Positions 8,249-25,087 of a stretch of DNA of 32,000 nucleotides are shown one piece after another. Every line of letters starts with the position of its first letter. The first letter of the stretch is position 1. The notes under the pieces are model-generated. The model was given only the letters and a program-made list of their open reading frames with translations. It searched no databases and was not told the DNA's origin. The position numbers and the translations under genes are program-made. Source of the stretch: Alkalilimnicola ehrlichii MLHE-1 (GTDB taxonomy: Bacteria > Pseudomonadota > Gammaproteobacteria > Nitrococcales > Halorhodospiraceae). Location: assembly GCF_000014785.1 (NCBI RefSeq), contig NC_008340.1, positions 1,350,001 to 1,382,000 on the forward strand, read 5' to 3'.

Positions 8249-8677
8249 ATGATGGCGCCATTGTCCCCACACGCCCTGACCCTGCCCGCCCGCGAGCGCG
8301 ACCGGCTCGCGCGGTTGGGCCTGGCGCGCTGGCCGGAGGAGGCCTGTGGGCTCATGCTGGGCTGTGACGGTCGGGTCCGGCGGCTGGTGCTCTGCCGCAA
8401 TGTGGCGGCCCGCCGGGCGGACCGCTACCTGGTCCACGCCCGCGATTTCCTGCGCTGGGACCGCGCCGCCCACCGCCTGGGCCTGGATATCCTGGGCGTC
8501 TGGCACACCCACCCGGACGGCGGGGCGCGACCCTCCGGGACCGACCGTGAGCAGGCCTGGCGGGGGTGGAGCTACCTGATCGCCGCTGTGGACGGGCGTG
8601 CGATCACCGAGTTGCGGAGCTGGCGCCTGCGTGGCGATCATTTCATCGAGGAAACGTTATGTCTGAAACCAGCGTAA
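8249..8677 (+). CDS. JAMM/MPN+ metalloprotease (Mec+/QbsD-like)
   Basis: 142 aa. Catalytic Glu context WPEEACGLMLG. JAMM motif HTHPDGGARPSGTD (HxH-x7-S-xx-D). Overlaps the next gene by 19 nt. Confidence 0.88.
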   Translation: MMAPLSPHALTLPARERDRLARLGLARWPEEACGLMLGCDGRVRRLVLCRNVAARRADRYLVHARDFLRWDRAAHRLGLDILGVWHTHPDGGARPSGTDREQAWRGWSYLIAAVDGRAITELRSWRLRGDHFIEETLCLKPA

Positions 8678-10101
8678 CCGTGCGCCTGCCGGCGCCGTTG
8701 CGGCCCTTCGCCGGGGACCAGCCGGAACTGCACGTCCCGGGCGCCAGCGTGGGCGAGGTGCTCGAGGCCCTGGCCCGCGACTACCCGCTGCTGCACGCCC
8801 GTCTGGTGGATCCGGACGGCGAGTTGCGGGCCTTCGTCAATCTTTTCCGGGGTGAGCAGGACGTACGGGAGCTGGCGGGGCAGAGGACGCCGCTGCGGCC
8901 GGGCGATGTGCTGACCGTGTTGCCGGCGGTGGCCGGCGGGGCGCCCTCCGCCCTGGAGCGCCTCTCGGCGCGGATTCGCCGGGAGGTGCCGGAGGTCACA
9001 CCGGCGGAGGCGCAGAAGCTGGCGGCGCAGGGGGCAGTGCTGCTGGATGTGCGGGAGGCCGGGGAGGTGGCAGAGGGCAGCCCCACCGGCGCGCTGCGCA
9101 TCGACCGCAACTGGCTGGAGTTGCGCATCGAGGAGGCGGTGCCCGAGCCGGAACGGCCCATCCTTACCCTGTGCGCCGTGGGACAGCGCTCGCTGCTGGC
9201 GGCGGACGACCTGCGTCGCCTGGGCTATCGCGACGTGCGCAACATCGCCGGCGGCTTTAACCGCTGGAAGGACGAAGGCCTGCCCTTCGAGGTGCCGCGG
9301 GTGCTGGATGACGCCTCGCGGGCCCGCTACGCCCGCCACCTGCGCATGCCCGAGGTGGGTGAGGCGGGGCAGCTGCGCCTGGGCGAGAGCCGGGTGGTGC
9401 TGGTGGGGGCCGGAGGGCTGGGTTCGCCGGCGGCGCTCTATCTGGCCGCGGCCGGGGTGGGCACCCTGGTGCTGGTCGACCATGACGTGGTGGACCGCAG
9501 CAACCTGCAGCGCCAGATCCTGCATACCGACGACCGGGTCGGCCAGCCCAAGACGGAGTCCGGGCGGCAGGCGGTGGCCGCGCTTAACCCCCAGGTGCGC
9601 GTGGAGGCCGTCCAGGCCCGGCTGAACAGCGAGAACATCGAGGCCGTGCTCGCCGGCGCCGACTTGGTGATCGACGGCTCAGATAACTTTCCCACCCGCT
9701 ACCTGGTCAATGACGCCTGCGTGAAACTGGGCCTGCCGCTGGTCTACGGCGCGGTCTACCGGTTCGAGGGTCAGGTCACGGTGTTCAATGTGGATGACGG
9801 GCCCTGCTACCGCTGCCTCTATCCGGAGCCGCCCCCGGCGGAGCTGGCCCCATCCTGTGCCCAGGCCGGGGTGCTGGGCGTGCTACCGGGGGTGATTGGG
9901 CTGCTGCAGGCCACGGAGGCGGTCAAGCTCCTGCTGGGTGTGGGGGAGCCGCTGTCCGGTCGACTGGTGCACTACGATGCGCTGCGGGGGCAGTTTCAGC
10001 AATTGCGGATGAAGGCCAACCCCGATTGCCCCGTTTGCGCCCCCGGGCGTCCGTTCCCAGGTTATGTGGACTACGAGGCCTTCTGCAGCAGTTCGGCCTG
10101 A
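8659..10101 (+). CDS. Fusion protein: CysO/MoaD-type beta-grasp sulfur carrier with an internal Gly-Gly, then a rhodanese domain, then a ThiF/MoeB E1 adenylyltransferase domain
   Basis: Start chosen at ATG 8659, in frame within ORF 8566..10101. Residues 1-94 (MSETSVTVRLPAPLRPFAGD...FVNLFRGEQDVR...GDVLTVLPAVAGG) follow the CysO layout and end in GG at nt 8935-8940. Rhodanese loop LTLCAVGQRS. E1 motifs VLVGAGGLGSPAALYLAAAG, DRSNLQRQ, SCAQAGVLG, and Zn Cys pairs CYRC and CPVC. Confidence 0.85.
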   Translation: MSETSVTVRLPAPLRPFAGDQPELHVPGASVGEVLEALARDYPLLHARLVDPDGELRAFVNLFRGEQDVRELAGQRTPLRPGDVLTVLPAVAGGAPSALERLSARIRREVPEVTPAEAQKLAAQGAVLLDVREAGEVAEGSPTGALRIDRNWLELRIEEAVPEPERPILTLCAVGQRSLLAADDLRRLGYRDVRNIAGGFNRWKDEGLPFEVPRVLDDASRARYARHLRMPEVGEAGQLRLGESRVVLVGAGGLGSPAALYLAAAGVGTLVLVDHDVVDRSNLQRQILHTDDRVGQPKTESGRQAVAALNPQVRVEAVQARLNSENIEAVLAGADLVIDGSDNFPTRYLVNDACVKLGLPLVYGAVYRFEGQVTVFNVDDGPCYRCLYPEPPPAELAPSCAQAGVLGVLPGVIGLLQATEAVKLLLGVGEPLSGRLVHYDALRGQFQQLRMKANPDCPVCAPGRPFPGYVDYEAFCSSSA

Positions 10102-10164
10102 GCGGAAATGGACCGCGGGTGGGCGGTGCGGCCGGCCACGACCGCACCGGGCGCCTCAACGTGC

Positions 10165-10446
10165 TTATTGGTCCAGCGCTTTGTCCACCGCCTCCGGGTG
10201 GGTTTCGCAGAAGTGTTTCAGGGTTAGTTTCAGCTTGACCACGTGGCGGGTATCGCCGCGGGCCTCGGCGTGTTCAATGTCGTCCAGGATCATCCGCCGG
10301 ATGCGTGGACAGCCCTCCGGTGAGTGCACCAGATAGTTGCCCAGTTCGATCGCCAGCATCTCCGAACAGTGCTCGTGCTCGCAAATGGCGTCGATCTCCT
10401 CCTCCGTGAGCTCCGCGAGCTCCCGGCAGTCGTCGATGGTGAGCAT
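10165..10446 (-). CDS. Hypothetical small acidic protein with five Cys (93 aa)
   Basis: Strong GGAGG Shine-Dalgarno (caGGAGGtcaccATG). GC3-rich codon usage. No family recognised (MLTIDDCRELAELTEEEIDAICEHEHCSEML...). Confidence 0.6.
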   Translation of the reverse strand: MLTIDDCRELAELTEEEIDAICEHEHCSEMLAIELGNYLVHSPEGCPRIRRMILDDIEHAEARGDTRHVVKLKLTLKHFCETHPEAVDKALDQ

Positions 10447-10586
10447 GGTGACCTCCTGCTGCTAGGCCGATATTGGGGCTGGGGAACGGGGAGTCTTTAT
10501 ATCAGTATCGATCAGCCTACTGGCCTGTATAGGGCAAACCGTGCGTCATCTTGACGCAGATCAAGACAGTACCGGGCCGACCGGGA

Positions 10587-11474
10587 TCAATCGACGGCGT
10601 GTTCTATGGGCTCCAACGACAGGATGTAATGGGCGATGGCCCGCCGGTCGTCATCGCTCAGATGGCTGCTGGACTCGTCGATGAACTCCCCCATCAGGCC
10701 GCCGGCGAAGTCGCCGTCCGGGTCCATGCCGAAATCCAGGTAGCGGACCAAGTGGCGTTCGCTCCAGCGTCCGATCCCGGTTTCGCGGTGGGGGGTGATA
10801 TTGGGGGCGGTCTCTCCCTCCGGGCCGTCCCGGGCCCCCGCCAGCCACCGGTCGCGGTCGAGGCCGCCGGTGCGGGTTCTCGGCGTATGACACTCGGCGC
10901 AGTGGCTCAGCGCATGGACCAGGTACGCCCCCCGGTTCCAGGTCTCCGAGCGGGACGGATCGGGTTCGAATTCACCCGGCTCGAAGTTCAGCCACTTCCA
11001 CCCGGCCAGGGGCAAGCGCCAGCGCACGTGCCAGTGGAGTTCGTGGGGGCGGTTGGGTTGACTGACCGGTTCCAGTGACTGGAGGTAGGCCCACAGGTCC
11101 TCGAGATCCTGGCGCCGCATCCGGGTGTAGCTGGTGTAGGGGAATACGGGGTAGTAGTGACGCCCGTCGGGCGCGCGCCCTTCGGTCATTGCGCCGATGA
11201 AGTCATCCAGCGACCAGTCCCCCAAGCCGTACTCCGGATCGGGGGTGATGTTCGGCCCGTAAAAGGTGCCGAAGGGCGTCTCCAGCGCCCGGCCCCCGGC
11301 GAGGAACTCGGCGTCCTCGTCCCGGGGCGTATGGCAGGAGACGCAGCCCCCGGCCCGCATCACATACTCGCCGCGGGTGACCGGGTCATCCCCGGGTGCC
11401 TCCGCTGCGGCCGGCCCGGTCAGCGCCAGGACGGCCGCAGCGGCCAGGGCGGCTGTGGGCCAGCGCCCGGTCAT
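10587..11474 (-). CDS. Diheme c-type cytochrome, periplasmic
   Basis: Start moved to the internal ATG (complement of 11472-11474), giving signal peptide MTGRWPTAALAAAAVLALTGPAAAEA. Two CxxCH motifs (CVSCH, CAECH). Starts 10 nt after the cytochrome c' stop. Confidence 0.85.
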   Translation of the reverse strand: MTGRWPTAALAAAAVLALTGPAAAEAPGDDPVTRGEYVMRAGGCVSCHTPRDEDAEFLAGGRALETPFGTFYGPNITPDPEYGLGDWSLDDFIGAMTEGRAPDGRHYYPVFPYTSYTRMRRQDLEDLWAYLQSLEPVSQPNRPHELHWHVRWRLPLAGWKWLNFEPGEFEPDPSRSETWNRGAYLVHALSHCAECHTPRTRTGGLDRDRWLAGARDGPEGETAPNITPHRETGIGRWSERHLVRYLDFGMDPDGDFAGGLMGEFIDESSSHLSDDDRRAIAHYILSLEPIEHAVD

Positions 11475-11484
11475 GGGACCGACC

Positions 11485-11934
11485 TCAGTCGCGGAAATCG
11501 TCGTGACAGGCCCGACAGGATTGGCCCAGATCGCGGAAGGCCGCCATGATCTCCCGGTCAGTGCCATCCTCGCGCACCACCGCGTAGAAGGCCTCCGCGG
11601 CATCCCGGGTCTCAGCAGCGCGCTCTTCGAACGTCTGGCGGTCACTCCAGACCGCCTCGCGGGCGTCGTTGTCGCCGACGTCTGAGCCCTCCGGGAAGAG
11701 GGCGGGGATATCGCGGGTGAACTCCGCCAGTATCCGGGCGTGTTGCTCCAGGTTGTCGCGGAAGTCGACACCGTCCATGATGATGGCGGCCGACGCCGCG
11801 GCATTACCCCCCAGCGAGCTCATCACCCCCTGGCGGTAGTCGACGATGGCCTCCGGATCGGCTGCCATGGCGGGAAAGACCAGGCTGCCCCCCATCGCGA
11901 CGACCAAGCATCCGTTACGAATTGCCTTGATCAT
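11485..11934 (-). CDS. Cytochrome c' (class II c-type cytochrome)
   Basis: 149 aa. Signal peptide ending FPAMAADP. Four-helix-bundle size with a single CxxCH at the extreme C-terminus (CRACHDDFRD). GGAGAG Shine-Dalgarno. Confidence 0.85.
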   Translation of the reverse strand: MIKAIRNGCLVVAMGGSLVFPAMAADPEAIVDYRQGVMSSLGGNAAASAAIIMDGVDFRDNLEQHARILAEFTRDIPALFPEGSDVGDNDAREAVWSDRQTFEERAAETRDAAEAFYAVVREDGTDREIMAAFRDLGQSCRACHDDFRD

Positions 11935-13401: not shown

Positions 13402-14685
13402 TCAGTGCCGCCGGGGCTGGCGGCGGCGCTTGTGGTGGGGTTGGACCCGGGCCATTTTCACCCGGTTGTCCTGGGTTTGCAGGATGGTCACCGGCCAGCC
13501 CTGGATCAGCAGGCTGGTGCCGGCCTCGGGGATCGACTCCAGGTGCTCCAGGATCAGGCCGTTGAGCGTACGGGGGCCATTGGCGGGTAGCCCCCACTTG
13601 AGCACCCGGTTGAGCTCGCGCACGGTGGTCTGACCCTCCACCATCCAACTGCCGTCGGGCTCCTGGTGCATGTTGGCCAGTGCGGAGCCCGGGTCGGTGG
13701 TGAACTCGCCCACGATCTCCTCCAGGATGTCATCCAACGCGGCCAGGCCCATGATGTCGCCGTACTCGTCCACCACCAACCCGATGCGCTCGCGCCGGCG
13801 CTGGAAGTTGAGCAACTGCTGATGCAGCCCGGTGCCCTCGGGGATGAAGTAGGCCTCACCGACCCGGCTTTCCAGGTCACTGCGGGTGAAGTCGCTGCGC
13901 AGCAGGTCGGCCAGCAGTTGGCGGACATGGATCATGCCCACCAGGTTGTCGATGGCGCCCCGGTACACCGGCAGGCGGGTGTATTGGGTGTTGATCAACA
14001 TCTCCACCGTCTGCGCCCAGGGGGCATCAAGATCGAGTCCGACCACCTCGTTGCGGGGCACCATGATGTCCTCCACCGTGGCGTACTCCAGATCGAGGAT
14101 GCTCAACAGCATTTTCTGGTGGCGTCGGGGGATCAGGTTGCCGGCCTCATTGACCACCGTGCGCAATTCCTCGCGGCTGAGGCTGTCGTCGCCGGTGTCG
14201 GTGACGCGGACGCGAAACAGCCGCAGCAGGCCATTGGCCACGGTGTTGACCATCCAGACCACCGGGTAGCTCACCAGCAGCAGCGGCGTCAGGGCGTAGG
14301 CGGCGGGGAAGGCCACCCGCTCCGGGTTCACCGCCGCCAGCGTCTTCGGTGTCACCTCGGAGAAGATCAGGATGGTAATGGTGAGCAATACCGCGGCGAG
14401 GGCGATCCCCGCTTCGCCCATCAGGCGGATGGCGATCAGCGTGGCCAGCGACGAGGCGGCGATGTTGACCAGGTTGTTGCCCAGCAGGATCACGCCCAGG
14501 ACCCGGTCGGGCCGCTCCAGCAGGCGCTCCGCCAGGCGGGCGCCGCGGTGGCCCTGCCTTGCCAGGTGACGCACCCGGTAGCGATTCACCGCCATCAGCC
14601 CGGTCTCGGAGCCGGAGAAGCAGCCTGAGAGCACGATCAGCACACCCAGGGCGATGAACAGGGTGGATAGCGGGATGGCCTCCAC
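13402..14685 (-). CDS. CNNM/HlyC-CorC family transporter (DUF21 + CBS pair + CorC_HlyC)
   Basis: 427 aa. N-terminal LSGCFSGSETGLMAVNRYRVRHL DUF21 signature. CBS region (VEDIMVPRNEVVGLD). C-terminal transporter-associated domain. Confidence 0.88.
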   Translation of the reverse strand: MEAIPLSTLFIALGVLIVLSGCFSGSETGLMAVNRYRVRHLARQGHRGARLAERLLERPDRVLGVILLGNNLVNIAASSLATLIAIRLMGEAGIALAAVLLTITILIFSEVTPKTLAAVNPERVAFPAAYALTPLLLVSYPVVWMVNTVANGLLRLFRVRVTDTGDDSLSREELRTVVNEAGNLIPRRHQKMLLSILDLEYATVEDIMVPRNEVVGLDLDAPWAQTVEMLINTQYTRLPVYRGAIDNLVGMIHVRQLLADLLRSDFTRSDLESRVGEAYFIPEGTGLHQQLLNFQRRRERIGLVVDEYGDIMGLAALDDILEEIVGEFTTDPGSALANMHQEPDGSWMVEGQTTVRELNRVLKWGLPANGPRTLNGLILEHLESIPEAGTSLLIQGWPVTILQTQDNRVKMARVQPHHKRRRQPRRH

Positions 14686-14688
14686 GAG

Positions 14689-15147
14689 TCAGGTCCGGAC
14701 CTTGGGGCCGACCCCGGGCAGGGCGCGCAGTCGGGCCAGTTCGTCGTCGTCGGGCAGGCGTGGCCGGTCGCGCTCACGGTCGACGATACAGAGAAAGCCG
14801 AGGGGTTCATCGCCGCTGGCATGGAACTGGTGAAAGGTCTGTGGCGCGATGTAGATACAGTCGTGCCGGCCGATCCGGTGCAGCGCATCGCCCAGGATCA
14901 GCTCCCCCTGCCCGCGCAGGATCACCACCGTGTGAGTGTGCTGATGCCGCTCCAGGGAGGAGTAGCCGCCGGGGGCGATCTCAAAGTACCGGGTCTGGTG
15001 GCCCAGTGCGCGCTCGTCCTCGTCAGCGCCCAGCAGGGTCTGCCGGGTGATGGCGCGGAAGTGGGTGCCATCGGTCTTGTAGGCCTTCAGCGGCACGCCC
15101 TCCCAGCGGTAGTCGCGGGCGTGGATGACCTTCGATTGCTCGGGCAT
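14689..15147 (-). CDS. Cupin-domain protein. By position a candidate methylthio-xylulose-5-P sulfurylase-type partner of the RLP.
   Basis: 152 aa. Cupin metal motifs (SSLERHQHTHTVVILRGQGE ... FHQFHASG). Starts 1 nt after the RLP stop. Confidence 0.75.
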   Translation of the reverse strand: MPEQSKVIHARDYRWEGVPLKAYKTDGTHFRAITRQTLLGADEDERALGHQTRYFEIAPGGYSSLERHQHTHTVVILRGQGELILGDALHRIGRHDCIYIAPQTFHQFHASGDEPLGFLCIVDRERDRPRLPDDDELARLRALPGVGPKVRT

Positions 15148-15148
15148 A

Positions 15149-16246
15149 TCAGTCTCGGATCGCTTGCATCAGGGCTCGGGAGGCGGCCTCGATGTCGCCC
15201 TGGGCGTAAAGGCTGCCCCCGATCAACAGGATGGTATCGGGCCCGTAGGCCTGCTTCCAGTGGCCAGCCCGCTTCACGTCCACGCCGCCGCCCGGTGTCG
15301 GCCAGGCGCTCGCCAGTCCCTCCAGGGGCCGGCGCAGGGCGTGGTTGATGGCCTGGCAGGTGTCGGCGGAAAAGCGAAAGCGGCCGCCAACGTTGGGATA
15401 GATCACGGCATCGGCGCCGGCAATGCGGAATAACTCGCCCAGCAGCAGGGCCGGGCTGATGCCGTGGCGCGGCAGAAACAGCCCGCCGGTCATCGCCGGA
15501 TGCGCCATCAGGGCCAGGCCGTATTCGTCCCGCGCCCAGCGCAGGGTCTCGAGGCCGGTGAGCCAGGGGCTGATCAGGACCATCTCACAGCCGGCGTCCC
15601 GCGCGGCCGCCAGCCGTTCCCCGAGGGCCTGGGGCGCTGCGGTGACATTGGGCAGGTACAGGCTGCGGCCGCCGCTCCTGCGGTTGGCCTGTCGCACCGC
15701 ATCCTGGCAGGCGTTCAGGCGCTCGGCGAAGGGGGCGTCCGGCTGATCGGCCAGGCCGTGGTCGTCCTTGATCAGATCAACGCCGCCGCGGGCGAAGGCG
15801 GCACACCGTGCGGCCAGCGCCGGTGCCGACAGCCCCATGGGCTTGAGCGCGGCGCAAAGCAATGGCCGCGCCCCCACGTCCAGCCGCGCCCGCAGCCCGG
15901 ACACCCCCAGCCCGGGGCCGCCCCAGCGGCGCAGCAGGCTGGGTGGCCAGGCCACCTGAACCAGCCGGATGCCGGACTGCAGCGAGATATTGCCGAAGAG
16001 CAGGTTGAGGCACTGGGTCAGCTCACCACCGATGGCGGCCAGCGGGTAGTCGATCTCGAGGACCCAGTGGTCCGCCCGCGGCTCGAGCGTGCGGATTCGT
16101 CCCACCATGCGCTCGGCGATGTCGCCGGGCAGGCAGTCGGCCGGCATCTCCACGGTCTGCTCCAGGGCGATGCCGCGGGCCTTGCCCTCGGGGGATTCAC
16201 CCTCGGCCAGGTAAAGCTCATAGGTGGCAGTGAGGACGTCGGTCAT
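15149..16246 (-). CDS. RuBisCO-like protein (Form IV RLP)
   Basis: Start at ATG (complement of 16244-16246) with GGAGGAACACCC upstream. 365 aa, MTDVLTATYELYLAEG... RuBisCO large-subunit barrel motifs are present in altered form: ALKPMGLS (KPK becomes KPM) and GGVDLIKDDHG (KDDE becomes KDDH). Also AHPAMTGG and PTPGGGV. Confidence 0.85.
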   Translation of the reverse strand: MTDVLTATYELYLAEGESPEGKARGIALEQTVEMPADCLPGDIAERMVGRIRTLEPRADHWVLEIDYPLAAIGGELTQCLNLLFGNISLQSGIRLVQVAWPPSLLRRWGGPGLGVSGLRARLDVGARPLLCAALKPMGLSAPALAARCAAFARGGVDLIKDDHGLADQPDAPFAERLNACQDAVRQANRRSGGRSLYLPNVTAAPQALGERLAAARDAGCEMVLISPWLTGLETLRWARDEYGLALMAHPAMTGGLFLPRHGISPALLLGELFRIAGADAVIYPNVGGRFRFSADTCQAINHALRRPLEGLASAWPTPGGGVDVKRAGHWKQAYGPDTILLIGGSLYAQGDIEAASRALMQAIRD

Positions 16247-17139
16247 GGGTGTTCCTCCGCGGGCCGCCGGGCCGGCGGCGCCGCCGGTCGGCGCAGGGTC
16301 AGGTTGAGCAGGCCGGCACCGATGACCAGGGCCATGCCCAGAAGGGTCATGGGGCCCAGCAGCTCGCCCCAGATCCACCAGCCGTAGAGCGAACCGAAGA
16401 CCACCGAGATGTAGGTGAAGGGGCCCAGGCGCCCCGACGGGGCGATGGCGAAAGCCCGGGTGAGCAGGAGCTGGGCCGATGTGGCACAGGCGCCAAGGAC
16501 CACCAACAGCACCAGCGTCTGACCCGTTGGTGTCTGCCAGACCCAGGGCAGGGGCAGGGCGGAGACCGTGGTGGCGGTCACGCCGAACCAGAAGACCACC
16601 CGGCGGCTGGATTCCTCCGGGCCCATGCGCCGGATGGTGACCTTGGCCAGCGCCGCCAGCGCGGCACCGGCCAGGCCCACTGCCCCCACCTGCAGGGCGG
16701 CGCCCTGCATGGCCCCGTTGGGTTGCAGGATGAAATAGACCCCAAGAAAGCCGACGGCGATGGCTAGGACGGTACGGCCGGACAGCGTCTCGCGCAACCA
16801 CAGCCAGGCGATCAGGGGTAGAAAGAAGGGGGCGGAGAGCTTTACCAGCAGCGCCTCCGCCAGCGGCATATGGGCGATGGTCCAGAAAAAGCAGTACATG
16901 GCGCCCACGCCGGCCAGGCCGCGCAGCAGATGCAGGTGCGGCACGCGGGTGGCCAGCCCCCGGCGCCCGCCCCGGACCAGCAGCGGCAGCAACAGCAGCA
17001 ACCCGAACAGGTTGCGGAAGAAGACGAGCATCTCGCTGGGCAGTTCCGCCGACGCCGCCTTGATGGTCGCCGCCATGGTCGCCAGCAGTAACTCGGCGAT
17101 GATGATTAGGGTTGCCCCCCGGCGGACGGCATCACTCAT
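16243..17139 (-). CDS. DMT-superfamily (EamA-type) transporter
   Basis: 298 aa, about 10 hydrophobic helices, duplicated EamA-like halves. Its stop overlaps the RLP start (ATGA). Confidence 0.82.
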   Translation of the reverse strand: MSDAVRRGATLIIIAELLLATMAATIKAASAELPSEMLVFFRNLFGLLLLLPLLVRGGRRGLATRVPHLHLLRGLAGVGAMYCFFWTIAHMPLAEALLVKLSAPFFLPLIAWLWLRETLSGRTVLAIAVGFLGVYFILQPNGAMQGAALQVGAVGLAGAALAALAKVTIRRMGPEESSRRVVFWFGVTATTVSALPLPWVWQTPTGQTLVLLVVLGACATSAQLLLTRAFAIAPSGRLGPFTYISVVFGSLYGWWIWGELLGPMTLLGMALVIGAGLLNLTLRRPAAPPARRPAEEHP

Positions 17140-18229
17140 TGTGGGGCGACAGGGGCACTTTCTCGGCCAGGGCGCAGGTGTTGCCCCCGGAGTGCTTGGC
17201 CAACTGCAGCGCCGCGTCGGCCGCGGCCATCAGATCGTCGCTGCTATCGGCGTGCTCCGGGTAGCCGGCCACGCCCATGGACACGGTCATCGCCGGCAGG
17301 TGCAGGCCGCGCAGGTGCACTCGGACCTTGGCCAGTTCCCGCCGCAGATCGTTGGCCCGTTCGATCGCATCACGGATGGCGGCCTCGGGCAGCACCAGAA
17401 GGAAGCGCTGGCCGGCGGCCCGGGCACAGATGTCCGAGCCGCGGAAGGAATGCTGCAGCAGGTCACTCATGGCCTGGAGCATGCGGTCACCGGCGTTCTG
17501 GCCATGCCGCTGGTTGTAGGCCTCGAAGCGATCCAGGTCAATCAGCACCACCGATAGCGGAAGCTGGTGGCGTTGGGCCCGATGCAGTTCGCGCTCCAGG
17601 GTGTCCTCCGCGTAACGGCGGTTGAACAGTCCGGTGAGCGGGTCACGGACGTTGCGATGGCGCAGGCGGTAGCGGAGGGTGTGGGTGGCCAGGGCCAGCC
17701 CGGCGGCCGAGGCCAGCATCTGCAGGGTCTGTTGTTCGCGTGCACGCAGCGCCCGGCCAGGGCTCAGGGGGCGGAGCTCCACGACCCCAAGGTAGAGGCC
17801 TTGGGCCTCGATGTTGAGTCGGTGTGCTGCCTGGTCCTCGGTGCACTCGTAATGAAGCGCATTGGGGTCGGTGAGCAGTTCGGCACCGCGCCAGGCGGCG
17901 ATCGCCCGGTTCGCGGGTTCTACGCCGGCCTGGTCGACAAAAATGGCCCCCGTGGTATCGGGCAGCAGCTCCGCCGCACAACGCGCCAGCAGTTGTGCGG
18001 CGTCGCCCTGGCTCAGGCTCTCGGTGAGACTGCCCAGCAGGGCGTGGAAGGCCTCGAGCACGTGGCCGAGCGCCGGGTCGGTGTCGGCAGCCCACCCTGC
18101 GCTGTCCCCGGTCAGCCCTTGGAGCTGGCGTTCCAGACTCGCCTGTTGGTCGTCCAGTTGCCGGACGAGCTGCCGCTGGGCCCTGAGGGCCTGGTTGATG
18201 GCCTCGAGCTTGCTCTGATCTGTCGTCAT
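17132..18229 (-). CDS. Coiled-coil + GAF-like + degenerate GGDEF domain protein. Predicted non-catalytic; the I-site is retained.
   Basis: 365 aa. GGDEF-domain entry RDPLTGLFNRRY and IDLDRFEAYNQRHGQNAGD. The active-site pentapeptide is AGQRF (nt 17402-17416) instead of GG(D/E)EF. RGSD (RxxD) sits five residues upstream. Confidence 0.85.
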   Translation of the reverse strand: MTTDQSKLEAINQALRAQRQLVRQLDDQQASLERQLQGLTGDSAGWAADTDPALGHVLEAFHALLGSLTESLSQGDAAQLLARCAAELLPDTTGAIFVDQAGVEPANRAIAAWRGAELLTDPNALHYECTEDQAAHRLNIEAQGLYLGVVELRPLSPGRALRAREQQTLQMLASAAGLALATHTLRYRLRHRNVRDPLTGLFNRRYAEDTLERELHRAQRHQLPLSVVLIDLDRFEAYNQRHGQNAGDRMLQAMSDLLQHSFRGSDICARAAGQRFLLVLPEAAIRDAIERANDLRRELAKVRVHLRGLHLPAMTVSMGVAGYPEHADSSDDLMAAADAALQLAKHSGGNTCALAEKVPLSPHNE

Positions 18230-18531
18230 GGCTTGTGGCTGTCCTGGTCCCGGGGCGGGCGGCCCGGGGCGTTTGCAGTCGGGTCAACGCCCGGCGGTGC
18301 CTTGCCACCGAGCAGCCGTACCAGCCGGGCACCGGTCTCCGGGTGGCGGCGGGCGAGCCGCGCGAGCACGAGTAGGGGTGAGCCGATGGCGAATACGGCA
18401 AGCAGTATGAAGCCGATCAGTTTAAGCCATGGAGGGAACAGTGGCCATAACCAGGTCACCAGTGCGTAGAGCAGGGCTATATACGCCACGGTGAACAGGG
18501 CGGCCAGAATGAGGGCGGGCAATGTGCGCAT
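18226..18531 (-). CDS. Small two-helix membrane protein, first gene of the RLP operon
   Basis: Start at ATG (complement of 18529-18531) inside the over-long ORF 18226..18885. [29 protein letters not shown]...[19 protein letters not shown]. Its stop overlaps the GGDEF start (ATGA). Confidence 0.55.
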
Positions 18532-18655
18532 GACGGCTCCGCGGGCTGTCGGGACCCGGTCGGCTGCGACCCGGGGGTCGGGCCGGGTTTCGTTCCGGGT
18601 TTCCTTACGGTGCATAATAGGCAGATTGGATGATAACAACAGCGAGGAGACCCGA

Positions 18656-19141
18656 ATGAGTGTTCCGACGACCGACCTCTGCGATGATTTCGCCGACGAG
18701 CTGCGGGTGATGAACCCGATGTTTCGGGATTTTGGCGGACGGGTGCGCTTCCACGGTCCGGTGACCACCGTGAAACTGTTCGAGGATAACTCGGCGGTGC
18801 GGGAGGCGTTGAGCGAGCCCGGCGAGGGGCGGGTGCTGGTGGTCGACGGCGGAGGCTCCATGCGGTGTGCCCTGTTGGGCGACAACCTGGCGGCCCTGGG
18901 GCAGAAGAACGGCTGGGCCGGGGTAGTGGTCTATGGGTGCGTGCGCGACAGCGCGGAGCTGGCCACGATCGATCTGGGTGTGAAGGCGCTCAACGTGCAC
19001 CCGCTGAAGAGTGTCAAAAAGGGCATCGGCGAGCGCGATGTCACCGTCACCTTCGCCGGGATCACGATTCAGGCCGGCGACTGGCTGTACGCCGACGAGG
19101 ACGGCATTGTCGTGGCCCGCAACAGCCTGGTGCAGGCCTGA
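18656..19141 (+). CDS. rraA: RraA family protein (RNase E regulator / HMG-aldolase fold)
   Basis: Start at ATG 18656 after [18 protein letters not shown]...[22 protein letters not shown]...[13 protein letters not shown] matches the RraA signature. Confidence 0.88.
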
Positions 19142-19980: not shown

Positions 19981-19989
19981 CCACCGCCC

Positions 19990-20608
19990 CCGCCATTGCG
20001 AGGGTCCGCCCCCGCCATTGCGAGGGTCGAAGGCTTTCCCCCGTCATCGCGAGGGCCAAAGGCCCCCTCCCCGTCATCGCGAGGGCCGGAGGCCCGTGGC
20101 GATCCAGAGGGGTAGACTGCCGCGTCGCTTCGCTCCTCGCAGTGACGGGGTGGCCCCTCTCCCCGTCATCGCGAGGGCCGGAGGCCCGTGGCGATCCAGG
20201 GCGGTAGACTGCCGCGTCGCTTCGCTCCTCGCAGTGACGGGGTGGCCCCTCCCCGTCACTGCGAGGGCCGGAGGCCCGTGGCGATCCAGAGGGGTAGACT
20301 GCCGCGTCGGCTTCGCCTCCTCGCAGTGACGGGGTGGCCCCTCTCCCCGTCATCGCGAGGGCCGGAGGCCCGTGGCGATCCAGAGGGGTAGACTGCCGCG
20401 TCGGCTTCGCCTCCTCGCAGTGACGGGGTGCCCCCTCCCCGTCATCGCGAGGGCCGAAGGCCCGTGGCGATCCAGGGCGGTAGACTGCCGCGTCGGCTTC
20501 GCCTCCTCGCAGTGACGGGGTGGCCCCTCCCCGTCATCGCGAGGGCCGGAGGCCCGTGGCGATCCAGAGGGGTAGACTGCCGCGTCGCTTCGCTCCTCGC
20601 AGTGACGG
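19990..20608. repeat. Tandem array of a ~92-bp palindromic (REP/MITE-like) unit: three solo left arms followed by six full copies
   Basis: Full units start at 20071, 20163, 20253, 20347, 20439 and 20531 (periods 92, 90, 94, 92, 92). Each has arms CCGTCATCGCGAGG ... CCTCGCAGTGACGG, which pair at 13 of 15 positions when each arm is extended by one flanking base. Solo arms lie at 19990, 20012 and 20041. There is no unique spacer between units. Confidence 0.92.
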
Positions 20609-20676: not shown

Positions 20677-23600
20677 TCAGTGGAAATCCCGCGAACGGAC
20701 GTCCAACGCCCCGAGCCAGTCGCTCCAGTCCTCCAGCCGTCCGGCCACCAGGTGGGTGACCGCCCCCTTGCGCTCCCAGATGCCGCTGACCATCAGCAGC
20801 CGGGCCGCCAGCAGGGTGCGGCGCTGGGCCTCGGCGGTGGCCTTCCAGACCACCAGGTTGATCTGCCCGGTCTCGTCCTCCAGTGTCAGGAAGGTGACGC
20901 CGCCGGCAGAGCCGGGGCGTTGGCGGTTGATGACCAACCCGGCGGTGCGGACCAGGCGGCCGTGGCCGGTGCTGGCCAGATCGGCAGCGGTCAGCAGCCG
21001 GCGGCGTCGCAACTGCGGGCGGAGCAGGGCCAGGGGGTGGCGGCCCAGGGTGAAGCCCAGGCTGGTGTAGTCGGCCACCAGGTCCTCGCCCTCGGCGGGG
21101 GCGTCCAGCGCCGGCGCCGCCTCCTCGATGTGCAGATCCTCAAACACCGGCAGGCCGGCTTCGGCGCCCAGCACCTGCCACCAGGCCGCGCGGCGGTGAC
21201 CGGCCAGGCCGCGCAGGGCGCCGGCGTGGGCCAGGGTCTCCAGATCCCGGCGGTGCAGGGCGGCGCGGCGGGCCATCTCCTGCACGTCGCGGAAGGGGCG
21301 CCGGCCGCGGGCGGCGATCAGCCGGTCCGCCGCCCGGCGGTTGAGGCCCCGCACCAGGCGCAGGCCCAGGCGCAGGGCCGGTTCGCCGTCGCCGCGGTGC
21401 TCCGGGCTGCAGTCCCAGTCGCTGTGGCGCACGTCCACCGGGCGGATCTCCACCCCGTGGCGTTCGGCGTCCCGCAGTAACTGGGCCGGGGCGTAGAAGC
21501 CCATGGGCTGGCTGTTGAGCAGCGCGCAGGTGAAGAGGGCCGGCTCATGGCACTTGAGCCAGGCGGAGACGTAGACCAGCAGGGCGAAGCTGGCGGCGTG
21601 GGACTCCGGGAAGCCGTACTCGCCGAAGCCCTGGATCTGCCGGAAGAGCCGCTCGGCGTAGTCCTCGCAGTAACCATTGCGGCGCATGCCCTTGAGCAGC
21701 TTGTCCCGGAAGGGGCCCAGCCCGCCCTTGCGCTTCCAGGCGGCCATGGCCCGGCGCAGGGCGTCCGCCTCGCCGGGGGTGAAGCCCGCCGCCACCACCG
21801 CCAACTGCATTACCTGTTCCTGGAAGATGGGCACGCCCAGGGTGCGCGCCAGCACCCCGCGCACGGCTTCGCTGGGGTAATCCACCGGCTCCAGGCCCTC
21901 CCGGCGGCGCAGATAGGGGTGGACCATGTCCCCCTGGATGGGGCCGGGACGGACGATGGCCACCTCGATCACCAGGTCGTAGAAGGTCTGCGGCCGCAGC
22001 CGGGGCAGCATGGCCATCTGGGCGCGGGACTCGATCTGGAACACGCCCATGGTGTCGGCGTCGCTGATCATGCGGTAGACCGCCGGGTCCTCCGCCGGCA
22101 CGTCGGCCAGGGTAAGCCGGCGACCGCGGAACCCGGCCAGCAGGTCGAAGGCGCGGCGGATGCAACTGAGCATGCCCAGGGCCAGCACGTCCACCTTGAG
22201 CAGGCCCAGGGCCTCCAGGTCGTCCTTGTCCCACTGGATGATGGTGCGCCCGGCCATGGCGGCGTTCTCGGTGGGTACCAGCTCGCTGATGGGGCCCTCC
22301 GAGATCACGAACCCCCCCACGTGCTGGGAGAGGTGGCGGGGCAGACCCAGCAGTTGCCCGGCGATGGCCACGGTGCGGGCCAGGCGCGGGTCGTCCGGGT
22401 TCAGGCCGGCCTCGCGCAGCCGCTCCGGGTCCACCCGCTTGCCGTCCCACCACTGGATGCTTCCGGCCAGCCGGTCGATGGTCGCGGCGTCCAGCCCCAG
22501 GGCGCGGCCGGCGTCGCGCAGGGCGCTGCGCGGGCGGTAGCGGATTACCGTGGCGGCCAGGGCGGCGCGGTGGCGGCCGTACTTGCGGTAGATGTACTGG
22601 ATGACCTCCTCACGCCGTTCGTGCTCGAAGTCCACGTCGATGTCCGGCGGCTCACCCCGCTCCTTGGAGATGAAGCGCTCGAAGAGCAGCGACTGGCGGG
22701 CCGGGTCCACCGCGGTGATCCCCAGGCAGAAACAGACCGCCGAGTTGGCCGAGGAGCCCCGGCCCTGGCAGAGGATGCCCCGGCGCCGGGCGAAGGCGAC
22801 CACATCGTGCACGGTGAGAAAGAAGGGTTCGTAACCCATCTCGGCAATCAGGGCCAGTTCGTGGTCCACCTGGTGGGCGACCTTGTCGGGCATGCCTTGG
22901 GGCCAGTGGCGGCGGGCGCCCTCCAGGGTGAGCCGGCGCAGATAGCTGGCGGGGGTCTCGCCGGCGGGCACCAGCTCGGCCGGGTATTCGTAGCGCAGTT
23001 TATCCAGGCTGAAGCGGCACTGGTCCGCCAGGTGCACGCTGCGGCGCAGCAGCGCTGGGGGGTAGAGCCGGGCCAGGCTGTGCAGCGACCGCAGATGGCG
23101 CTCGCCGCTGCACTCCAGCGCCGTGCCCATCGCCGCCAGGGTGCGGCGGTGGCGCAGGGCGGAGAGGGTGTCCTGCAGGGCGCGTCGGCCGCGCCGGTGC
23201 ATCAGCACGCCGCCGGCGGCCACCGCCGGGAGCCGGAAGCGATCCGCCAGGGCCAGTAGCCGCTGCAGGCGGGCCTCGTCGTCGGGGCCGTGGTGCAGGG
23301 CCACTGCCACGTGGCCCCGATCGCCGAAATGGCGGGCGAACCATCGGCCCTGTTCGGCGTCGTGCGGTGCATCGTCAGGCACCCACAGGGCCAGGCAGTG
23401 GGGCAGGGTGCCCTCCAACTGCTCCCGTTCCAGACGGTAGTCCCCCTTGCGGGCCTGACTGCGGCCCAGGCTGATAAGCGCGCAGAGTTCCGCCCAGGCC
23501 CGGCGGCAGGGGGCGAGCAAGACCAGCAGCGGGCCCTGGTGAATGCGGATCTCGCTGCCGTGGATCAGGTGCAGGTCCGTCTCTTTGGCCGCCTGGTGGG

Positions 23601-23754
23601 CGCGCACCGCCCCGGCCACCGAGCACGCGTCGGTGAGGGCCAGGGCGCGGTAGCCCAACTCGGCGGCCCGCTGCACCAGTTCCGCCGGCTGAGAGGCACC
23701 GCGCAGGAAGCTGAAGCAGGACAGGCAGTGGAGTTCGGCGTAGTCGATGGGCAT
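20677..23754 (-). CDS. dnaE2: Error-prone DNA polymerase III alpha-like subunit DnaE2 (ImuC)
   Basis: Start at ATG (complement of 23752-23754). MPIDYAELHCLSCFSFLRGASQPAELV PHP-domain start is typical of DnaE2. 1025 aa. A LexA box lies 13 nt upstream. Confidence 0.92.
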   Translation of the reverse strand: MPIDYAELHCLSCFSFLRGASQPAELVQRAAELGYRALALTDACSVAGAVRAHQAAKETDLHLIHGSEIRIHQGPLLVLLAPCRRAWAELCALISLGRSQARKGDYRLEREQLEGTLPHCLALWVPDDAPHDAEQGRWFARHFGDRGHVAVALHHGPDDEARLQRLLALADRFRLPAVAAGGVLMHRRGRRALQDTLSALRHRRTLAAMGTALECSGERHLRSLHSLARLYPPALLRRSVHLADQCRFSLDKLRYEYPAELVPAGETPASYLRRLTLEGARRHWPQGMPDKVAHQVDHELALIAEMGYEPFFLTVHDVVAFARRRGILCQGRGSSANSAVCFCLGITAVDPARQSLLFERFISKERGEPPDIDVDFEHERREEVIQYIYRKYGRHRAALAATVIRYRPRSALRDAGRALGLDAATIDRLAGSIQWWDGKRVDPERLREAGLNPDDPRLARTVAIAGQLLGLPRHLSQHVGGFVISEGPISELVPTENAAMAGRTIIQWDKDDLEALGLLKVDVLALGMLSCIRRAFDLLAGFRGRRLTLADVPAEDPAVYRMISDADTMGVFQIESRAQMAMLPRLRPQTFYDLVIEVAIVRPGPIQGDMVHPYLRRREGLEPVDYPSEAVRGVLARTLGVPIFQEQVMQLAVVAAGFTPGEADALRRAMAAWKRKGGLGPFRDKLLKGMRRNGYCEDYAERLFRQIQGFGEYGFPESHAASFALLVYVSAWLKCHEPALFTCALLNSQPMGFYAPAQLLRDAERHGVEIRPVDVRHSDWDCSPEHRGDGEPALRLGLRLVRGLNRRAADRLIAARGRRPFRDVQEMARRAALHRRDLETLAHAGALRGLAGHRRAAWWQVLGAEAGLPVFEDLHIEEAAPALDAPAEGEDLVADYTSLGFTLGRHPLALLRPQLRRRRLLTAADLASTGHGRLVRTAGLVINRQRPGSAGGVTFLTLEDETGQINLVVWKATAEAQRRTLLAARLLMVSGIWERKGAVTHLVAGRLEDWSDWLGALDVRSRDFH

Positions 23755-23767
23755 GCGGGGTCTGGAG

Positions 23768-23783
23768 CTGTATAAATATACAG
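23768..23783 (-). promoter_or_regulatory. LexA (SOS) operator
   Basis: CTGTATAAATATACAG matches the gammaproteobacterial CTGT-N8-ACAG box perfectly and has an AT-only spacer. It sits directly upstream of dnaE2. Confidence 0.85.
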
Positions 23784-23848
23784 TTATTGTCGCCCTCCCG
23801 GCACCGGCCGGCAACCCTGCCGGGCGGGCGGCGAATCCTGGGGGCCGG

Positions 23849-25087
23849 TTAGCGCGGGGTGCTTGGGGGTGTCGGGGCGTCCAGGCCCTGCGGCGTCGCC
23901 TGCATGGCCGCCTGTCTCTGTACCGCCCTGGGTGCGCCATTGGCCAGCAGCACCGCGCCCAGTGAGCAGACCGCCATGATCAGCACAATGGGCAGGAGAG
24001 CCTCACCGGCCAGGCGGGTGGAGAGGGCGCTGACGGCACCCGCCACCGTGAATTGGGTGGCGCCCAGCAAGGCGGCGGCGGTGCCACCCAGGTTGGGGAA
24101 GTAGTCCAGGGCCCCCGCCAGGCTGTTGGGGACGATGGCGCCCATGCAACCGGTGACCGCCATCAGACAGGCCACCACGGCCCAGGAGGGCGCATCCAGC
24201 AGCACCAGCAGGATAAGCAGGGCGATGGCGAGGTGCTGCGTCGCGACCGCGGTGCGCAGGATGTGCACCGAGGGAAAGCGCAGGAGCAGGCGGCGGTTGA
24301 CCAGGTTCAGCACGGCCATGGCCGCCACATTGGCAGCGAACAACGCCGCGAAGGCGCTGCTGGAGAACCCGAACCACCCCTGGTAGATGAACGAGGCGTG
24401 GGTAATGAACACCAACATGGCACTGAAGGCCAGGGTCTGCAGGGCAATGAAGCGCATGGCCACCCGGTGCCGCAGTACCAGCAGGTAGTTGGTGACCAGC
24501 GATTGGACCGGCGTGCGCGCGGGGACGCGTACCGGGATGCGCCGGAACAACCGGTAATGCAGCAACACCCCGAGCAACAGCGCGTAGCCGCCAAGCGCGT
24601 AATAGATGGCGGGCCAGTTACTGACCGCCAGCAGGGCGCTGCCCAGGGCAGGGGCCGAGGCCGGGGCGATGAACATCACCAGGCCGATCAACCCGAACAG
24701 GCGGGCGGCCTCGTTGCCCCGGCACTGGTCGCGGACAATGGCCGGGACGGACACCGCGCAGAAGGCGCCGCCCACTCCCTGGACCACCCGCCACGCCAGC
24801 ATCTCGTTCAGGCTGTCCGCCTGCGCCACCATAAAGGCCGCGGCGGCGAAGACCGCCAGCCCCAGCAGCAGCACCCGCTGACGGCCGTAGCGGTCGGACA
24901 ACGGGCCGCCGATCAGTTGTGCCAGACCGAGGGCAAAGACATAGGCGCTCAGCGTCAGGCCCACATCCGCCTTGCTGACGCCCAGGTCGCCGGCGATGGC
25001 CGGGAAAGCGGGCAAATAGGCATCCAGGGCCAACGGCCCCAGGGCGACCGTCATGCCGAGCAGAATCGCGAGTTGATAATGGGGCAT
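23849..25087 (-). CDS. MFS transporter, Bcr/CflA drug-resistance subfamily
   Basis: 412 aa, 12 predicted helices. N-terminal signature LGPLALDAYLPAFPAIAGDLGVS...LIGGPLSDRYGRQRVLL. Confidence 0.88.
   Translation of the reverse strand: MPHYQLAILLGMTVALGPLALDAYLPAFPAIAGDLGVSKADVGLTLSAYVFALGLAQLIGGPLSDRYGRQRVLLLGLAVFAAAAFMVAQADSLNEMLAWRVVQGVGGAFCAVSVPAIVRDQCRGNEAARLFGLIGLVMFIAPASAPALGSALLAVSNWPAIYYALGGYALLLGVLLHYRLFRRIPVRVPARTPVQSLVTNYLLVLRHRVAMRFIALQTLAFSAMLVFITHASFIYQGWFGFSSSAFAALFAANVAAMAVLNLVNRRLLLRFPSVHILRTAVATQHLAIALLILLVLLDAPSWAVVACLMAVTGCMGAIVPNSLAGALDYFPNLGGTAAALLGATQFTVAGAVSALSTRLAGEALLPIVLIMAVCSLGAVLLANGAPRAVQRQAAMQATPQGLDAPTPPSTPR

Follow-up and report, generated by a model that had tools for sequence, protein, structure and literature searches.

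In the 32-kb window of the Alkalilimnicola ehrlichii MLHE-1 genome analysed here (the whole stretch of DNA, in which all coordinates are given unless a locus is named), six consecutive genes on the minus strand bring together a Form IV RuBisCO-like protein (RLP) and a cupin with a small membrane protein, a degenerate GGDEF-domain protein, an EamA-family transporter and a CNNM-family membrane protein. The best explanation, and one that we consider probable from sequence comparisons, is that the RLP and the cupin would constitute the core of the 5'-methylthioadenosine (MTA)-isoprenoid shunt and that the six genes would be co-transcribed. The RLP-cupin module itself is an ordinary and already known system, anticipated in the literature for Halorhodospira and Nitrococcus. 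What is new is solely the company that the pair keeps in this lineage, an extended operon which spans several genera and is undescribed in the literature searchable here.

The six-gene cluster

In order to define the limits of the genes, all junctions between the six co-directional open reading frames (ORFs) were read base by base. The cluster begins with an ORF of 101 aa identified as a small membrane protein by hydropathy (18226-18531), and continues with the degenerate GGDEF-domain protein of 365 aa (17132-18229), the transporter of 298 aa belonging to the drug/metabolite transporter (DMT)/EamA family (16243-17139), the RLP, also of 365 aa (15149-16246), the Cupin_2 protein of 152 aa (14689-15147) and, starting with GTG, the CNNM-family membrane protein of CorB/YfjD type with 427 aa (13402-14685). 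The small gene and the GGDEF gene overlap by ATGA (18229-18226), the GGDEF and EamA genes by the 8 nt ATGAGTGA (17139-17132) and the EamA and RLP genes again by ATGA (16246-16243), while a single T at 15148 separates the RLP from the cupin and the 3-nt gap CTC (14688-14686) separates the cupin from the CNNM gene. All six ORFs display codon-position GC of the coding type, with a GC content of 0.75-0.91 at third positions and 0.41-0.52 at second positions, in a genome of 68% G+C. A preliminary description of this DNA had placed the six ORFs and all five junctions at exactly these positions, and the families it had named (GGDEF, EamA, RuBisCO_large, Cupin_2 and CNNM/CBS/CorC_HlyC) were all matched by Pfam.

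The sole non-coding DNA upstream of the cluster is the divergent intergenic region of 124 nt between rraA and the small gene (18532-18655, minus strand), rraA starting on the plus strand with an ATG at 18656. A GGAG motif is found 6-9 nt ahead of the small-gene ATG at 18531. This region is presumed to hold the promoter of the six-gene cluster; a consensus scan gave no minus-strand match to the sigma-70 consensus within 18532-18655. Moreover, no S-adenosylmethionine (SAM) or c-di-GMP (cyclic di-GMP) riboswitch was detected by Rfam in the leader or elsewhere in the window. Consensus scanning also revealed no convincing intrinsic terminator inside the cluster: the two minus-strand terminator-like matches, at 16910 and 16607, have stems of only 5-6 pairs and fall inside the coding sequence of EamA, and the count of all terminator-like matches is within about 2 standard deviations of that in shuffled sequences. 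Since five successive junctions are of 3 nt or less, co-transcription of the six genes is very likely. Indeed, the cluster combines the features looked for in an operon, namely one strand, near-zero junctions, no internal terminator and an order kept in relatives, and we consider it very likely that the six genes form one transcription unit.

The RuBisCO-like protein

In a search of all solved structures, the best match of the RLP was 3QFW (3.1e-73, 250 bits, full length), followed by the YkrW/MtnW enolases (152 bits, 1.6e-43), archaeal form III RuBisCO (about 110 bits), the Photo-clade RLPs (86 bits for 2QYG and 78 bits for 1TEL, about 1e-21 to 1e-23) and 3NWR (72 bits). The structure 3QFW is the RLP1-type protein of Rhodopseudomonas palustris, as given by its 100% identity to the R. 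palustris sequence P0121. The same match ruled out 3QFW as a structure of the Rhodospirillum rubrum RLP. The window RLP scored far below the YkrW/MtnW equivalog cutoffs of NCBIfam, with 180 bits against a cutoff of 409 for NF007095 and 140 bits against 513.6 for a second model.

A neighbour-joining tree, rooted with a partial Geobacillus MtnW (YkrW) sequence and built without references for the Photo, NonPhoto and other clades, separated an alphaproteobacterial clade that contains both characterised enzymes from a gammaproteobacterial/Gemmatimonadota clade that contains the window RLP, the two clades being sisters. Together, the structure scores and the tree rooted with YkrW place the protein on the DeepYkr side of the Form IV clades, a placement based on the score hierarchy and one outgroup clade.

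The active site was compared in an alignment of 13 RLPs, which comprised the window protein, the one of R. rubrum, two of R. palustris, those of Rhodomicrobium and Magnetospirillum, six from gammaproteobacteria and one from Gemmatimonadota. Over 350 residues, the window RLP and that of R. rubrum share 43% identity, and every active-site column common to the enzymes of R. rubrum and R. palustris is unchanged in the window protein. Residues K135, P136, G138, K160-D161-D162-H163, H249-P250, G288-R289-F290, G320-G321 and G343 are invariant in 13/13 sequences. The preliminary description had presented the motifs KPMGLS (K135-S140) and IKDDH (I159-H163) and the length of 365 aa as oddities of this RLP, but in the alignment they turn out to be clade-wide signatures. 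Indeed, IKDDH is identical in all 13 RLPs, the counterpart of KPMGLS reads KPQGL in R. rubrum and R. palustris, and the other aligned proteins are 366-374 aa long. The gammaproteobacterial/Gemmatimonadota clade further displays an insertion of 5 residues after the AHP motif. In light of these comparisons, the window RLP is best classified as a typical DeepYkr-type Form IV protein, with a predicted activity of 5-methylthioribulose-1-phosphate 1,3-isomerase.

The cupin and its pairing with the RLP

The best PDB matches of the cupin were 3IBM (5.7e-53), 3JZV, which is Rru_A2000 of R. rubrum (5.7e-37), and 3KGZ (1.9e-32), while the next match, at 1e-06, is 26 orders of magnitude weaker. The window protein is 49% identical to Rru_A2000 and keeps its ERHQH.H and HQF motifs. 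This PDB ranking and the identity over the same His motif support orthology to the R. rubrum enzyme, and the cupin is classified as an orthologue of the methylsulfurylase Rru_A2000, predicted to act as a 1-methylthioxylulose-5-phosphate methylsulfurylase.

In both R. rubrum and R. palustris the RLP is a 5-methylthioribulose-1-phosphate 1,3-isomerase, and the cupin is a glutathione-dependent 1-methylthioxylulose-5-phosphate methylsulfurylase yielding 1-deoxyxylulose-5-phosphate (DXP) and a methanethiol adduct (PMC4958253, PMC5893883). For RPA2169/RPA2170 of R. palustris, the isomerase and methylsulfurylase roles have both in vivo and in vitro support (PMC5893883). The pair is also carried by Halorhodospira halophila and Nitrococcus mobilis "in a similar gene organization" (PMC4958253).

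In order to follow the pair through related genomes, 80 loci were collected by a scan with the RLP alignment, one genome per GTDB species, and the window proteins were placed in them by tblastn. In 71 of these 80 loci, which come from Gammaproteobacteria and Gemmatimonadota, the cupin gene follows immediately on the RLP gene, and the two genes are adjacent in R. palustris, Rhodomicrobium and Magnetospirillum as well. Given a DeepYkr-type RLP, an orthologue of Rru_A2000 and adjacency in 71/80 loci, the window pair very probably represents the pair of the MTA-isoprenoid shunt. The structure matches of both proteins uphold the reading of the RLP and the cupin as an R. rubrum-type pair, as had been proposed from the first inspection of the DNA.

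The absence of mtnA, mtnP and mtnK from the window had been noted at that stage too, as part of a context said to differ from the one in R. rubrum. The other large ORFs of the 32-kb window revealed no domain of the mtnA, mtnP or mtnK type, and that part of the statement stands. It is no departure from R. rubrum, however, in which mtnP/mtnA (Rru_A0361/0360) are likewise unlinked to the RLP gene Rru_A1998 (PMC4958253); in R. palustris as well, mtnP/mtnA (RPA4821/4820) are unlinked to RPA2169/2170 (PMC5893883). The context of the window does differ from that of R. rubrum, but by the genes which are added and not by missing mtn genes.

The accessory proteins

The small protein displays two hydrophobic segments, consistent with two transmembrane helices. 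It belongs to no Pfam or NCBIfam family, and Pfam gave nothing credible for it at E values up to 10. The GGDEF domain of the next protein covers residues 195-350 (Pfam GGDEF, 3.5e-39) and is preceded by a coiled coil and then by a domain of ~ 110 aa with conserved Trp and Gly residues; for these N-terminal ~ 190 residues no Pfam family was found, and nothing credible was seen at E values up to 10. A single-sequence AlphaFold model of the protein was unusable (mean confidence score, pLDDT, of 40).

In the GGDEF protein, AGQRF replaces the catalytic motif GG(D/E)EF while the I-site RxxD is intact as RGSD, five residues upstream. All 21 orthologues carry a degenerate catalytic motif, which reads SERRF, GGQF, DDTF, SGERF, DHGF or otherwise, and FRGSD is kept in all 21 except four, namely three Arhodomonas proteins that have no I-site and the one of locus L002, which reads FRASD. 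Given that the intact GG(D/E)EF expected of a diguanylate cyclase is not present in the window protein, it is predicted to be non-catalytic and is not to be classed as a cyclase. The preliminary description had called it receptor-like, which is plausible in view of the degenerate motif together with RGSD, a pattern common to the orthologues, and the protein is plausibly a candidate c-di-GMP receptor.

The EamA protein contains two EamA repeats (Pfam, 2.3e-26), as expected for the DMT superfamily with about 10 transmembrane helices. Its similarity to the NCBIfam models 2A78 and YddG is weak and far below their cutoffs, and no solved homologue was found by sequence.

The last gene of the cluster had been described as a CNNM/CorC transporter. 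The CNNM membrane domain (Pfam CNNM, 2.7e-51) is indeed present together with the CBS and CorC_HlyC domains, but the CorC label does not hold: with the CorC model NF011675 the protein attains 93 bits, the cutoff being 379, and it reaches 481.8 bits against a cutoff of 475 with NF008604 (YfjD/PRK11573) over residues 1-421. True CorC is a soluble CBS/CorC_HlyC protein without a membrane domain, an accessory protein of Mg/Co efflux. A CNNM gene lies directly downstream of the cupin in 7 loci, all of Halorhodospira type (L034, L036, L040, L041, L043, L044 and L045), and in the sister-species contig L085 described below, and it is found 5 kb upstream in Arhodomonas. The linkage is limited to one lineage, which speaks against counting the CNNM gene as part of the context of the pair, as had been done earlier. 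Most probably it encodes a housekeeping exporter of ions or solutes, joined to the cluster by nothing more than a common transcript, and a functional tie between this gene and the shunt has little probability.

Conservation of the neighbourhood in related loci

Gene calls in the 80 loci were obtained with a start chooser scored by third-position GC followed by clustering, a procedure that fails to call the RLP of 8 loci as well as the window's own small gene; the counts of accessory genes consequently combine these gene calls with tblastn. The GGDEF gene lies directly upstream of the RLP in 20 loci by tblastn and in 21 with gene clustering. In 8 related loci (tblastn) and in L085, the RLP gene is immediately preceded by the EamA gene. 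For the small ORF, tblastn gave matches with 33-51% identity in 13 related loci, where they lie at the corresponding position, and 19 loci have a gene from a cluster of 77-aa genes there, in most cases right behind a homologue of phosphoribulokinase (PRK).

The tight gene order of the window is kept in relatives, namely Halorhodospira, Aquisalimonas, Arhodomonas and the sister species. Indeed, the metagenomic contig L085 from a sister species, whose RLP is 83% identical, shows the identical order of the six genes with the same junction spacing and flanks. In Arhodomonas aquaeolei the order is PRK, GGDEF, EamA, RLP and cupin, with a spacing of 26 nt at the first junction and overlaps of 4, 4 and 11 nt at the following ones. 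Aquisalimonas lutea displays PRK, small gene, GGDEF, EamA, RLP and cupin, the successive spacings being -1, -4, 40, -8 and 70 nt. In Halorhodospira, GGDEF is followed after 14-47 nt by the RLP, then by the cupin (-4 to 18 nt) and after 21-28 nt by the CNNM gene, with the exception of H. abdelmalekii (L036), in which the gap between GGDEF and RLP is 174 nt.

The PRK homologue that heads the operon in 18 related loci has 349 aa and is of the plant/archaeal type (Pfam PRK 3.5e-39; NCBIfam NF005655 with 293.9 bits against a cutoff of 236; best PDB match 5B3F at 2e-51). It is found for instance at L019:~4900-5990 and L027:~4900-5940 as well as in L002, L003, L004, L006 and L007, and is usually followed at once by the small membrane protein. 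No trace of it was found in the window, for instance in 18532-18655. Aquisalimonas and Arhodomonas are heterotrophs. As a speculation, a PRK beside an RLP in these heterotrophic relatives may have a role other than in the Calvin cycle, such as the phosphorylation of a 5-methylthio-ketose at C1.

A reverse search of metagenome contigs with the GGDEF protein returned only generic GGDEF-domain patterns, and 0 of the 80 metagenome loci listed by this search carried an RLP, a cupin, an EamA gene or the small gene, an outcome that weighs neither for nor against a link between the GGDEF orthologues and RLPs. The alignment of 21 GGDEF sequences had no usable conserved stretch, and a narrower alignment was used for this search.

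Two further observations concern the related loci themselves. In Gemmatimonadota, the pair belongs to a different operon of four genes in about 16 loci (among them L042, L050, L052, L053, L055, L056, L061, L068 and L076-L080; ~ 9100-11300 of loci of 17 kb), in which the RLP overlaps the cupin by 8 nt, the cupin overlaps an aldehyde dehydrogenase gene (Aldedh, 1e-137) by 4 nt and the latter overlaps a DUF72 gene by 4 nt. The genome that bears the label 'Alkalilimnicola ehrlichii strain AK92' encodes an RLP (L074:8001-8858) with only 58% identity to that of MLHE-1, and the tblastn match stops early, covering 858 of ~ 1095 nt; either the RLP gene of AK92 is disrupted or the strain is a different species.

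Proposed mechanism and alternative explanations

In the proposed shunt, MTA would be converted into 5-methylthioribulose-1-phosphate by enzymes encoded elsewhere in the genome, and the RLP would isomerise this compound to 1-methylthioxylulose-5-phosphate. The cupin, using a thiol (glutathione in R. rubrum), would then cleave the methylthio group to give 1-deoxyxylulose-5-phosphate for isoprenoids, and the released methylthio group would, after reduction, provide methanethiol for methionine resynthesis. The EamA protein may move a metabolite related to the pathway, either by uptake of an MTA-type substrate or by export of a sulfur product, and the degenerate GGDEF protein may act as a regulatory c-di-GMP sensor, as the conserved linkage of the small, GGDEF and EamA genes suggests. 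Export of a thiol under second-messenger control had been envisaged in the preliminary description.

The small, GGDEF and EamA genes appear to form an extension of the module that is specific to Ectothiorhodospiraceae-like gammaproteobacteria (Halorhodospira, Aquisalimonas, Arhodomonas and Alkalilimnicola). As to whether they are functionally tied to the shunt, the data at hand would suit a yes about as well as a no, and at present what these genes signify stands as a gene-neighbourhood hypothesis. Several points weigh against the proposal. The accessory genes are absent from the alphaproteobacterial, Gemmatimonadota, Immundisolibacter and Nitrococcus loci and are variably lost within the gammaproteobacterial group, and vertical synteny could account for their conservation. 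EamA is a very common type of gene. With the characterised enzymes, the window RLP shares only 41-43% identity, and it falls into a separate sub-clade with the 5-residue insertion. Finally, the search for mtnP, mtnN, mtnK and mtnA spans the 32-kb window alone, and the supply of the substrate by other regions of the genome is an assumption.

The alternative that best withstands the evidence is packing without partnership: the shunt pair would be real, but the small, GGDEF, EamA and CNNM genes would be unrelated neighbours brought together by genome compaction and inherited synteny. We give this explanation substantial weight, if somewhat less than an even chance. Most gammaproteobacterial loci share a divergent rraA-hsp15 flank, so much of the conservation of gene order is inherited synteny, as would be expected under vertical inheritance. 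Moreover, the pair does exist without the accessory genes: it stands alone as a bicistron in R. palustris, Rhodomicrobium and Magnetospirillum, and in R. rubrum it is even split by an antitoxin gene. The accessory genes are individually dispensable in the gammaproteobacterial loci, the numbers of loci being 21 for GGDEF, 8 for EamA and 13-19 for the small gene, and the CNNM gene fits the widespread housekeeping model YfjD. However, the overlapping stop-start junctions of the PRK/GGDEF/EamA/RLP/cupin block are kept across genera whose RLPs are 55-62% identical, and in Arhodomonas, where the rraA-hsp15 flank has been replaced, the block outlives this replacement and is still intact, which is some evidence of selection on the block. 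Furthermore, the GGDEF orthologues represent a distinct degenerate family, found here at this position only.

Different chemistry is an unlikely explanation, in which the RLP and the cupin of Gammaproteobacteria and Gemmatimonadota would act on another sugar phosphate or by another route, for example on a ketose that the PRK homologue would have phosphorylated at C1. The modest identity of the RLP to the characterised enzymes (just 41-43%) and its separate sub-clade with the 5-residue insertion would fit such a divergence, as would the PRK homologue at the head of the operon in 18 relatives, including Aquisalimonas and Arhodomonas, and the operon of Gemmatimonadota in which genes for an aldehyde dehydrogenase and for a DUF72 protein are coupled to the pair. 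On the other hand, the sub-clade shows no variation in any of the active-site columns that the enzymes of R. rubrum and R. palustris have in common, the cupin, which defines the methylsulfurylase step, is kept at 49% identity with the same His motif, and the PRK gene is absent from the window and is consequently not required at the MLHE-1 locus. A different substrate altogether, which the preliminary description had also envisaged, is disfavoured because the cupin partner is retained and the active-site columns are invariant.

Equally improbable in our view is a selected unit in which the catalytically dead GGDEF protein, sensing c-di-GMP, would gate the EamA transporter for an MTA-derived metabolite going out or an MTA-type substrate coming in, and in which the PRK homologue of the relatives would make the RLP substrate from a 5-methylthio-ketose, by phosphorylation at C1; if true, it would mean a new entry route and a methionine salvage controlled by a second messenger.

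The shunt pair within one transcription unit is the explanation that we retain. To our knowledge, no transporter or regulator has been assigned so far to the MTA-isoprenoid shunt, and c-di-GMP sensing tied to sulfur and methionine salvage would be new if true. The PRK homologue in heterotrophic relatives offers a concrete lead to a non-Calvin role of PRK beside an RLP.

Other features of the window

A 92-bp unit occurs in six tandem copies with 94% matches at 20061-20608 (and 19984-20095), between an ORF to which no family was assigned and a minus-strand ORF of 1087 aa (20677-23940). Each unit carries an internal inverted repeat, CCCCGTCATCGCGAGG ... CCTCGCAGTGACGGGG, and the array looks like a REP/BIME-like element (repetitive extragenic palindrome/bacterial interspersed mosaic element) and not a CRISPR.

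On the plus strand, an ORF of 511 aa (8566-10101) contains in sequence a ThiS domain (residues 39-125), a rhodanese domain (145-236) and a ThiF domain (255-490). Such a fusion, or such an order of the domains, is unusual for a sulfur-carrier-activating enzyme of the MoeZ/MoeB type; alternatively, the start of the ORF is over-extended. On the minus strand at 10587-11934, a cytochrome c' gene (Cytochrom_C_2, 3.7e-27) and an ORF for a di-haem cytochrome c overlap at the 5' end of the latter, which is over-extended. The cytochrome c'/di-haem cytochrome c pair, together with DUF2721, also flanks the cluster in the sister-species contig L085.

Comparison with known systems

The degenerate GGDEF protein can be compared with PopA and PelD, which are c-di-GMP receptor proteins with a degenerate GGDEF domain. 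Like such receptors, it combines the GGDEF fold with a destroyed catalytic motif and a retained RxxD site, but its N-terminal part is different. We know of no degenerate-GGDEF receptor linked to methionine salvage. As for the CNNM protein, it shares with the YfjD/CorB-type protein of E. coli (NF008604) the CNNM membrane domain, the pair of CBS domains and the CorC_HlyC domain.

Among the RLPs, YkrW/MtnW, the 2,3-diketo-5-methylthiopentyl-1-phosphate enolase of Bacillus and Geobacillus, is also a Form IV protein of methionine salvage and represents the next-best clade by score. In contrast to the window RLP, it carries KDDE where the window protein has KDDH and has no cupin partner, and the window RLP is not a member of this clade.

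The closest solved RLP is the one of R. palustris, whose RPA2169/RPA2170 (3QFW and 3KGZ) resemble the window pair in that RLP and cupin are adjacent, the two genes overlapping as in most relatives. Unlike the window, R. palustris displays a stand-alone bicistron, unaccompanied by genes for a GGDEF, EamA, small or CNNM protein. In Rhodomicrobium vannielii and in a Magnetospirillum metagenome-assembled genome, the RLP and cupin genes likewise overlap and form a bicistron of their own. Near these pairs, a divergent NupC-type nucleoside transporter gene is seen in R. palustris (L081:4570-5820), and in Magnetospirillum a glutaredoxin gene and an EamA gene lie on the opposite strand right after the cupin (L084:6692-7962); both may be coincidences.

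In R. rubrum, whose locus was obtained via the Rru_A2000 sequence, a gene for an MgtE Mg2+ transporter with CBS domains lies on the opposite strand 2 kb upstream (L082:1472-2902), which may be a coincidence as well. The R. rubrum genes Rru_A1998 and Rru_A2000 encode proteins of the same two families as in the window, with the same K..KDDH..HP..GGRF..GG signature, a short RLP and mtnP/mtnA unlinked. They differ from the window genes in that a gene of the BrnA antitoxin family on the opposite strand splits the RLP from the cupin and in that there is no GGDEF, EamA or CNNM partner, whereas in A. ehrlichii MLHE-1 the RLP, which belongs to the sister sub-clade, and the cupin stand 1 nt apart within a cluster of six co-directional genes.

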